From the IMG/VR virus record IMGVR_UViG_3300046786_000293, positions 160,001 to 224,000 of that record: a DNA stretch of 64,000 nucleotides, one strand, 5' to 3'. The stretch is from a virus. Its lineage: Duplodnaviria > Caudoviricetes. Below are positions 23,606 to 23,679 of this stretch, in pieces. Each line of letters opens with the position of its first letter. Position 1 is the first letter of the stretch. The position numbers and the translations under genes were made by a program. The notes below the pieces were generated by a model, which was given only the letters and a program-made list of their open reading frames with translations, had not been told where the DNA came from and did not search any database.

Positions 23606-23679
23606 GCGCTTGGGCCAGATGGACTGGCAGGAGCTTCTAAAACTCCGGTGAGCGGGTTCGATTCCCGTCAAGCGCACCA
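23606..23679 (+). tRNA. tRNA with CUA anticodon (amber suppressor candidate)
   Basis: GCGCTTG/CAAGCGC acceptor stem, A73, encoded CCA; D arm GCCAG-ATGGA-CTGGC; anticodon arm GGAG(C)-TTCTAAA-(A)CTCC; T arm GCGGG-TTCGATT-CCCGT. Confidence 0.88.

Follow-up and report, generated by a model that had tools for sequence, protein, structure and literature searches.

What does an amber-reading tRNA decode in a phage that ends its genes at the standard stop codons? The question is raised by positions 23606-23679 (plus strand) of a 64,000-nucleotide stretch of DNA, hereafter the window, which corresponds to positions 160001-224000 of the 338,510-bp IMG/VR record IMGVR_UViG_3300046786_000293, the genome (estimated to be 97% complete) of a T4-like freshwater jumbo phage. 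A first-pass annotation, made from the letters of the window alone, had noticed there a tRNA with the anticodon CUA, which we call tRNA(CUA). We propose that this tRNA is probably a functional amber suppressor, charged by a synthetase of the host, and that it has a dedicated client, the UAG at codon 4 of the gene located at 25810-26358.

The tRNA(CUA) gene

ARAGORN finds a single tRNA in the whole window, at 23606-23679 (plus strand) with the anticodon CTA at tRNA position 32, i.e., with the same coordinates and anticodon as in the first-pass annotation. Rfam matches the same gene to RF00005 over model positions 1-71 of 71, at 36.1 bits for a gathering score of 29 (E-values of 6.6e-4 over the whole window and 3.1e-6 locally). 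The parts of the gene are as follows.

23606-23679, plus strand: tRNA(CUA), 74 nucleotides (ARAGORN, Rfam, minimum free energy cloverleaf, family covariation)
23606-23612 and 23669-23675, plus strand: the two sides of the acceptor stem
23637-23639, plus strand: anticodon CTA, within the loop TTCTAAA at 23635-23641
23634 and 23642, plus strand: unpaired C and A
23676, plus strand: discriminator A, followed by the encoded CCA at 23677-23679

The minimum free energy (MFE) fold is a cloverleaf (-30.7 kcal/mol, z = -2.43) with a 7-bp acceptor stem, one linker nucleotide (G), a 5-bp D stem carrying the 5-nucleotide D-loop AUGGA, an anticodon stem of 4 bp with C.A (31.39) in place of a fifth pair, the loop UUCUAAA, a 5-nucleotide variable loop, a canonical T arm (T-loop UUCGAUU), A73 and an encoded CCA. 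The 7-nucleotide anticodon loop with CUA at 34-36 between U33 and A37, on which ARAGORN and Rfam agree, the C-A closing mismatch, the canonical T-loop, the short variable loop and the CCA end had all been described in the first-pass annotation and are all present. Its compact D-arm, with one linker nucleotide and a 5-nucleotide loop, is found in the MFE fold, but in the ARAGORN drawing the linker has two nucleotides, the stem has 4 bp and two further nucleotides precede the anticodon stem. The disputed fifth pair of the D stem occurs both as G-C and as C-G (the window and L029 versus L028 and L167), which favours the 5-bp drawing for the subgroup of the window.

The region 23500-23779 is reproduced without any difference in an independent metagenome assembly, as is the downstream gene at 25810-26358. 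Together, these data confirm that 23606-23679 is a real tRNA, which its anticodon and loop predict to be amber-reading.

A downstream gene with an amber codon at position 4

A comparison of the open reading frames (ORFs) obtained with TAG as a stop or as a sense codon brought out the ORF 25726-26358, which contains an early TAG. The gene that it comprises lies 2.1 kb downstream of tRNA(CUA), on the same strand. This candidate client codon was absent from the first-pass annotation.

25797-25802, plus strand: Shine-Dalgarno (SD) sequence AAGGAG, 7 nucleotides before the ATG at 25810, with an equivalent SD in the homologues
25810-25821, plus strand: leader ATG GCA CAA and in-frame TAG (25819-25821), hereafter the gate, as read in the sequence and in the independent assembly
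25822-26358, plus strand: body of the gated gene, 178 codons and TAA (alignment, predicted structure)

The gene reads ATG GCA CAA TAG ATT GAA TAT GCT TGT..., the TAG being codon 4. The first canonical start after the TAG (ATG 25891) is located 24 codons in and has no SD, and the 23 codons that separate it from the TAG are the best-conserved part of the protein in the alignment. When the 338-kb genome was scanned for the same layout (SD, ATG, one to six codons and TAG, followed by an ORF of 60 codons or more), 25810-26358 was the sole gene found. The same scan of the complete genome of a relative (G001; 360,683 bp), where tRNA(CUA) lies 1 kb upstream of the gate, returned the gated gene and otherwise only two weak TAG matches. 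In 1.9 Mb of loci, this layout occurs 106 times in the gated family, and elsewhere seven times with TAG, 15 times with TAA and 11 times with TGA.

The gate and its linkage to tRNA(CUA) are conserved

A tblastn search of the loci that had already been fetched found the gene in 36, including 27 that the anticodon arm of the tRNA alone had brought in; all 36 copies show an SD, an ATG, one to three variable codons and a TAG. A wider search found 404 relatives of the gated gene in IMG/VR, the best 80 of which were fetched with 10-kb flanks. Altogether, the 115 gated loci examined reduce to 77 distinct genes, with identities as low as about 43%.

The stop of the gate is TAG in all 77 distinct homologues, never TAA or TGA, even though the leader consists of ATG and zero to eight further codons and shows 15 different final codons. 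The TAG is directly followed by an A in 76 of the 77 genes, and the codon after it is ATT in 68 and ATC, ATA, AAA, AAC or GTA in the other nine. These genes themselves terminate at TAA (49) or TGA (24), and never at TAG. ARAGORN detects tRNA(CUA) in 95 of the 115 loci, always on the strand of the gated gene (95/95) and upstream of it in 87, at a median distance of 353 nucleotides and sometimes only 16-30 nucleotides from the SD. Where at least 3 kb of upstream flank is available, tRNA(CUA) was found in 91 of the 93 loci, 85 by ARAGORN and six more by Rfam.

The distant homologues P0003, P0004, P0016, P0017 and P0022 are ungated and begin with an ATG at the place of the TAG, as we confirmed on the DNA. 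The gate is therefore an added feature, not a part of the fold, and the protein itself can do without the TAG.

A version of the module occurs in a cultured phage. In Rhizobium phage RHph_I1_18 (MN988519), an unannotated 82-codon ORF (L169:2477-2814), a homologue of the gated protein's N-terminal domain, starts with ATG AGT GAG TTC ATG TAG AAC, i.e., with the TAG at codon 6. It ends 12 nucleotides before an annotated "tRNA-Pyl(cta)" that has the family acceptor (GCGC start), A73 and a CUCUAAA loop. More generally, gene callers truncate or miss the gated genes, and many database entries start at an internal Met. Some database proteins have a Q at the gate, which we rejected as evidence for glutamine: the DNA has TAG at that place (P0036, L098), and the Q stems from gene calling with code 15.

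A family of phage tRNAs conserved as amber readers

The tRNA of the window has at least 76 distinct phage tRNA(CUA) genes in its family, which we gathered from an anticodon-arm search of IMG/VR and from loci found through neighbouring proteins. Searched exactly against IMG/VR, the anticodon arm of a syntenic relative matched 46 contigs, and 41 of these carry a tRNA(CUA). The set comprises 71 distinct sequences called by ARAGORN, of which 70 were aligned, and six more found by Rfam only. The anticodon loop is YUCUAAA in 71/71, as CUCUAAA (58) or as the UUCUAAA of the window (13). Throughout the alignment U33, C34, U35, A36 and A37 are invariant, and A38 is present in more than 90% of the sequences. 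CCA is encoded in 70 of the 71 genes and A73 is present in 64. At the acceptor end, G1-C72, C2-G71 and G3-C70 occur in 69, 65 and 59 of the 70 aligned sequences, respectively, and pairs 4-7 covary freely. RNAalifold gives a cloverleaf shared by the 70 distinct relatives, with compensatory (double) changes at 17 of 19 pairs, and neither disrupted stems nor a drifting anticodon were seen among the 76 distinct family genes. The invariant loop and the compensatory changes indicate that selection maintains the sequence as a tRNA and its anticodon as CUA. The conservation of the acceptor end suggests that a synthetase of the host recognises it.

The mismatch at the bottom of the anticodon stem is itself conserved: 31.39 is non-Watson-Crick in 58 of the 71 sequences (C.A in 45, A.C in eight, C.C in three and A.A in two), which points to the open bottom pair as a selected trait. 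A 4-bp anticodon stem is found in 5.6% of bacterial tRNAs, and in E. coli CUA-anticodon tRNAs gave more read-through when their top pair was opened (PMC13092985). The tRNAs described here resemble these in that their anticodon stem is effectively 4 bp long in 58 of 71 members, but it opens at the bottom pair 31-39 instead of the top pair 27-43.

The D-arm varies from the canonical 4-bp stem and 7-8-nucleotide loop, which most members have together with a normal UA linker, to a 5-bp stem with a 3-nucleotide loop. This extreme, a hairpin without GG, is found in tRNAs of about 70 nucleotides (L093:2858-2927, L101:9623-9692 and L091:9105-9173). As ARAGORN misses such members, which Rfam finds, surveys by ARAGORN alone undercount suppressors. 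The short D-arm of the window, which the first-pass annotation had regarded as a tRNA-Pyl trait, is thus one point in a range within a single phage tRNA family.

Neither of the tRNA-Arg links raised in the first-pass annotation, derivation from Arg(UCU) by an AA insertion and reading of AGA through a distorted loop, is supported. In a comparison with 199 phage tRNAs the best identity per isotype was 0.60-0.71 with no outlier, so that similarity gives no signal for an isotype. In addition, the UUCU string is present only in a minority of the family, the C32 of 58 of the 71 relatives destroying the UCU register. A tRNA-Trp homologue in G001 was also set aside: its two-mismatch match to the anticodon arm is a chance one, and the arm of the genuine G001 tRNA(CUA) is another.

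Two kinds of RNA elements were observed next to members of the family. Odd tRNA-like genes adjoin the module at L169:2817-2892, L176:10599-10675 and L178:722-798; they combine U73 with abnormal anticodon loops and a Cys-like anticodon region (GCA), and ARAGORN reports them as "tRNA-??? (gc)". The Rfam "freshwater-2" motif (70-78 bits) occurs at L093:2714-2794 and L101:9479-9559, on the minus strand in both cases, about 60 nucleotides upstream of tRNA(CUA) and on the strand opposite to it.

A second gated gene type and an opal version

The same arrangement was found in PTH2 peptidyl-tRNA hydrolase genes, a type unrelated to the gated gene. The PTH2 gene L039:5749-6162 (minus strand; Pfam E-value of 2.9e-21) starts with ATG ACG TAG ATT, the PTH2-like gene at about L060:2314-2616 (plus strand) with ATG CCT GAC ACC TAG AAC, and the PTH2-like gene L148:8877-9254 (plus strand) with ATG GCA TAG ATT, its first canonical start being 88 codons in. 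All three are located downstream of a tRNA(CUA).

Agrobacterium phage Atu_ph07 (MF403008) carries a tRNA(UCA) (PMC6102473), located at L180:1470-1544. Its PTH2-like gene (L170:1432-1881) has an ATG, five codons and then an in-frame TGA ATT; the annotated start is an internal Met that belongs to a conserved DLEM motif. The gene looks like an opal version of the gate. In both the UAG/CUA and the UGA/UCA versions, gate stop and suppressor anticodon thus correspond, which is predicted by decoding of the stop and not by re-initiation after it.

The phage keeps the standard genetic code

Coding density (ORFs of at least 50 amino acids) is 95.2% under table 11 and also 95.2% with TAG as sense. As TAG as sense adds no coding, we rejected genome-wide TAG recoding (code 15), and the phage needs no tRNA(CUA) for general decoding. 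Among 425 ORFs, 278 end with TAA, 125 with TGA and 22 with TAG (about 5%; 9% in G001), and none of the 67 ORFs of at least 400 amino acids ends with TAG; some real TAG-ending genes have a second stop zero to eight codons further on. Internal TAGs were compared with the complete relative in selected frames only; off-frame translations of conserved genes also match in tblastn. Internal TAGs occur only upstream of true starts or at gene ends, with two exceptions, the gate and one insertion in an IscU-like gene outside the window (G000:C1:65414-65809, minus strand). This private 9-nucleotide insertion (TAG ATA GGC), in the Cys-Gly-Asp motif, is absent from nine homologues (83-87% identity); it may be an in-frame amber codon that the phage tolerates, or else a defect or an error of the assembly.

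The genome search for a synthetase or a release factor suggested in the first-pass annotation returned no match to PylS (TIGR02367), in a search whose control detects Methanosarcina, nor to the class II Lys/Asp/Asn, the Glu/Gln and the Arg synthetase domains. The absence of pylS from the window thereby extends to the 97%-complete genome. No code-change module, i.e., a phage release factor 2 (RF2) or a synthetase of the four families searched, was found. The sole match to a release-factor RF-1 domain is a 139-amino-acid GGQ-only (ArfB-like) gene (G000:111813-112106), located inside an array of 39 other tRNAs. This array, which serves all twenty amino acids, lies 57 kb away on the opposite strand; tRNA(CUA) stands alone. 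The genome also encodes a permuted transfer-messenger RNA (tmRNA; G000:5387-6021), about 178 kb from tRNA(CUA). In nine relatives (L035, L047, L049, L057, L059, L061, L109, L165 and L176), a permuted tmRNA lies within about 4 kb of tRNA(CUA), only 28 nucleotides away in L049.

Neighbouring features and the gated protein

The following features surround the module in the window.

23569-23596, plus strand: promoter-like TAGACT-16 nucleotides-TATAAT, 10/12 matches to the consensus, the -10 hexamer ending 10 nucleotides 5' of the tRNA
23692-23710, no strand assigned: inverted repeat (8-bp stem, 3-nucleotide loop) 13 nucleotides 3' of the tRNA, terminator-like on the minus strand and with no T run on the plus strand
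23761-24519, plus strand: 252-amino-acid protein with a C-terminal zinc ribbon (Pfam PF13240, E-value of 2e-7), between the tRNA and the gated gene
24579-25571, plus strand: PstS-like phosphate-binding protein, an auxiliary metabolic gene (PHROG 5385, E-value of 3.7e-68)
25623-25642, plus strand: intrinsic-terminator-like hairpin with a T run, 3' of pstS

The first-pass annotation had credited the tRNA with its own sigma70-type promoter. A promoter-like site is indeed well placed, but it is weak evidence, because such consensus matches are no commoner in the region (nine) than in shuffled sequences (9.3 expected). The zinc-ribbon protein served as the synteny marker to find relatives, and in L008 and L014/15 tRNA(CUA) lies upstream of it too. 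Compared with most relatives, the pstS gene is inserted between the tRNA and its candidate client, and the terminator-like hairpin that follows pstS suggests that the gated gene is here a separate transcription unit. For the upstream 193-amino-acid protein no relatives were found in IMG/VR, and a nucleotide search of GenBank phages with the locus gave no match.

Elsewhere in the window are found a T4-type major capsid protein (29954-31138; Pfam Gp23), tail-fibre genes, an island of auxiliary genes (PstS, peroxiredoxin, class II aldolase and TerC) and the Rfam Polynucleobacter-1 motif (39330-39462, minus strand; 112 bits for a gathering score of 37). The sequencing runs that hold the window stretch are freshwater, aquatic and estuary metagenomes.

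The gated protein matches no Pfam or PHROG family and has no match in a language-model atlas either. Its predicted structure (predicted local distance difference test score of 86.8) comprises an N-terminal beta-barrel and a C-terminal ferredoxin-like domain. Foldseek found no match in the PDB, and among the AFDB clusters only small uncharacterised barrels, which cover residues 1-80. With VIA-align, residues 94-168 gave generic ferredoxin-like, ACT, RRM and EF-G-type matches (Z of at most 5.9), which are too weak and too generic to name a function. Other small phage proteins carry the N-terminal domain at their C-terminus, and it is also found by itself.

A proposed read-through mechanism and its alternatives

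From the conserved tRNA, the fixed TAG and their linkage, we infer the following mechanism. Ribosomes would start at the strong SD and ATG, make Met-Ala-Gln and meet the UAG followed by an A. In the absence of tRNA(CUA), release factor 1 (RF1) would release the tripeptide; in its presence, an amino acid would be inserted and the 178-residue protein made. Like a lock and its key, the gate would tie the synthesis of the protein to the presence, charging and competitiveness of tRNA(CUA). The 3' context affects the decoding of stops, and very short peptides terminate poorly. The position of the UAG, at codons 2-10, and the A that follows it should accordingly favour the suppressor over RF1, and a failed read-through would cost only a short peptide.

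The homologues do not reveal the inserted residue, because all gated copies have TAG, and its identity is probably unimportant, because the UAG sits in a variable N-terminal tail. The established identity rules of E. coli tRNAs would make Lys or Gln (from U35), Thr or Gly (from the first three pairs) and, for the members with A20, Arg the candidates; the lysylation through U35 and A73 that the first-pass annotation suggested may thus occur. As for its purpose, the gate could be a delay timer, a sensor of the translation status or a guard against expression outside infection; the company of a tmRNA, an ArfB-like factor and PTH2 hints at ribosome rescue and peptidyl-tRNA turnover.

Several observations weigh against the pairing of a suppressor with a dedicated client. 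Two gated loci with ample flank, L143 and L156, show no tRNA(CUA) by ARAGORN or Rfam. Conversely, L176:8796-10597 is ungated (ATG ATC GAA) and yet has a tRNA(CUA) 1.2 kb upstream and an adjoining tmRNA, so that the tRNA may have further clients or roles. In the window, two genes and the terminator-like site occupy the 2.1 kb that separate the gated gene from the tRNA. As the searches assigned no function to the gated protein, any benefit of gating is a conjecture, and the ATT that follows 68 of the 77 TAGs would also fit re-initiation at AUU. Lastly, no contig from the RNA libraries of three studies covers the tRNA. Such contigs do cover the leader-TAG-body region of relatives, which is weak evidence as DNA carry-over is possible, and none of the RNA runs holds the window's own sequence.

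Could the tRNA be a permissive suppressor in an AT-rich, TAG-poor phage, where it would buffer nonsense mutations and let TAGs drift in, the gate being merely the first of them? TAG is indeed the rarest stop in both complete genomes, the IscU-like gene has its private TAG-containing insertion, and a published model has stops becoming rare before a suppressor tRNA is acquired (10.1101/2021.08.26.457843). Drift would, however, scatter TAGs, whereas here they occupy one position in 77/77 genes, at codons 2-10 and with A next in 76/77. In neither complete genome was another in-frame TAG found, the IscU insertion excepted, and the ungated homologues do without one, so we regard this explanation as unlikely. 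We are still less inclined to believe that the leader is a mini-ORF ending at the UAG, after which the main ORF re-initiates at AUU, the tRNA serving elsewhere, e.g., in the read-through of host UAGs during host takeover with tmRNA and ArfB-like rescue as a backup. This would account for the prevalence of ATT after the TAG, beyond what Ile alone requires, in the gated family and in the PTH2 gates of L039 and L148, and it agrees with the presence of the permuted tmRNA and the minimal GGQ protein in the genome and with the tmRNA adjoining the tRNA in several relatives. Nonetheless, it leaves unexplained why the stop is never TAA or TGA although TAG is the rarest stop, and why 91 of 93 loci have a tRNA(CUA) linked to the gate on the same strand. 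Moreover, nine genes have a codon other than ATT after the TAG, and the sole TGA gate found lies in a phage with a UCA suppressor (Atu_ph07; PMC6102473).

The two remaining explanations concern the tRNA itself. A pseudogene or a mis-called tRNA, reading AGA through a distorted 9-nucleotide loop, would fit the modest Rfam score of 36.1 bits and the 31.39 mismatch, which opens such a loop in the MFE fold. The strict conservation of the loop and anticodon, the compensating stems, the conservation of the mismatch itself (58/71) and the C32 that removes the UCU register in most members make this highly improbable. That the tRNA carries a non-canonical amino acid in the manner of tRNA-Pyl, with charging by an unrecognised enzyme encoded among the many phage ORFs without a known function, would agree with the CUA anticodon, the dedicated in-frame UAG of a linked gene and the compact D-arm. 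We give this reading almost no credence: the 97%-complete genome has none of the synthetase domains searched for, the body of the tRNA fails most tRNA-Pyl features, the UAG sits in a variable tail where the identity of the residue is unlikely to matter, and its position is absent from the ungated homologues. A suppressor charged by the host with the gate as its client thus remains the explanation that we favour.

Relation to known systems and significance

The tRNA-Pyl has a 6-bp anticodon stem, a 3-nucleotide variable loop, a single nucleotide linking the acceptor and D stems and a 5-nucleotide D-loop, with neither G18G19 nor the T-psi-C consensus, and its gene pylT is linked to an in-frame UAG in methylamine methyltransferase genes. 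The present system likewise links a dedicated CUA tRNA with an in-frame UAG that is conserved in one gene family, and the MFE fold gives the member of the window a short D-loop and a single linker nucleotide, where ARAGORN draws two linker nucleotides and a 4-bp D stem. The tRNA-Pyl-like traits pointed out in the first-pass annotation do not extend to the rest of the molecule, which has a 4-bp anticodon stem with a mismatch, a 5-nucleotide variable loop, GG (canonical G18G19) in the D-loop and a canonical T-loop. In addition, no PylS was found (pylB, pylC and pylD were not searched for), and the UAG lies in a dispensable N-terminal tail instead of an active site. The label itself is uninformative, as ARAGORN applies "tRNA-Pyl" to any CUA tRNA.

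In the autoregulation of prfB, which encodes RF2, an early in-frame UGA is bypassed by a +1 frameshift that senses the gene's own product. There too an early in-frame stop sets the yield through the competition between termination and alternative decoding, but here the stop would be suppressed by the cognate product of a separate tRNA gene, with no feedback shown.

Recoded gut phages (crAss-like, Lak and others) translate TAG as Gln (code 15) and carry suppressor tRNAs (Borges et al., 10.1101/2021.08.26.457843; PMC9523058). Like them, this phage has its own tRNA(CUA), presumably a standard-code host and TAG as a rare stop, and the idea that suppression controls the expression of particular genes is common to both. 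Unlike them, it is a freshwater T4-like jumbo phage whose genome is not recoded and in which no RF2/synthetase code-change module was found; it has one conserved client codon at the start of one gene, whereas theirs are many and lie in late and lysis genes. Closer counterparts are the cultured standard-code phages with suppressor tRNAs: Atu_ph07 with tRNA(UCA) (PMC6102473), RsoM2USA with tRNA(CUA) (PMC8504454), AP-J-162 with a "tRNA-Pyl" (PMC11242549) and Summit (PMC9022506); the "tRNA-Pyl(cta)" of RHph_I1_18 is a GenBank annotation. These phages also have a lone suppressor beside a large set of ordinary tRNAs, but none of the four reports names a client gene, at most "several potential genes", whereas a specific client is proposed here. 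Our literature search found no paper describing the pairing of a tRNA(CUA) with an early-TAG gene.

We tentatively raise the possibility that the tRNA and the early stop form a natural and portable translational switch, which would be a new class of phage gene regulation instead of a step towards a code change. In such a switch, the suppressor would be orthogonal-like, its anticodon stem deliberately unpinned, and would read a stop at codons 2-10, where the release of a very short peptide is slow, so that the yield would report the balance between the suppressor and RF1. The device would have been reused on translation-rescue genes (the gated protein and PTH2) near tmRNA and ArfB-like genes, and in UAG/CUA and UGA/UCA versions.

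Suppressor tRNAs in standard-code phages have so far been explained as codon-usage helpers or as a step in recoding. The gate would give these previously target-less suppressors a client that is both specific and widespread (404 IMG/VR relatives, 115 loci examined). The module is minimal (one tRNA, one codon and one gene), which makes the purpose of such tRNAs directly testable, and versions of it occur in two cultured phages, RHph_I1_18 of Rhizobium and Atu_ph07 of Agrobacterium. As natural and compact amber suppressors (70-78 nucleotides) with a conserved acceptor identity and an open 31.39 pair, the members of this family may also be of interest for tRNA biology and genetic-code engineering.

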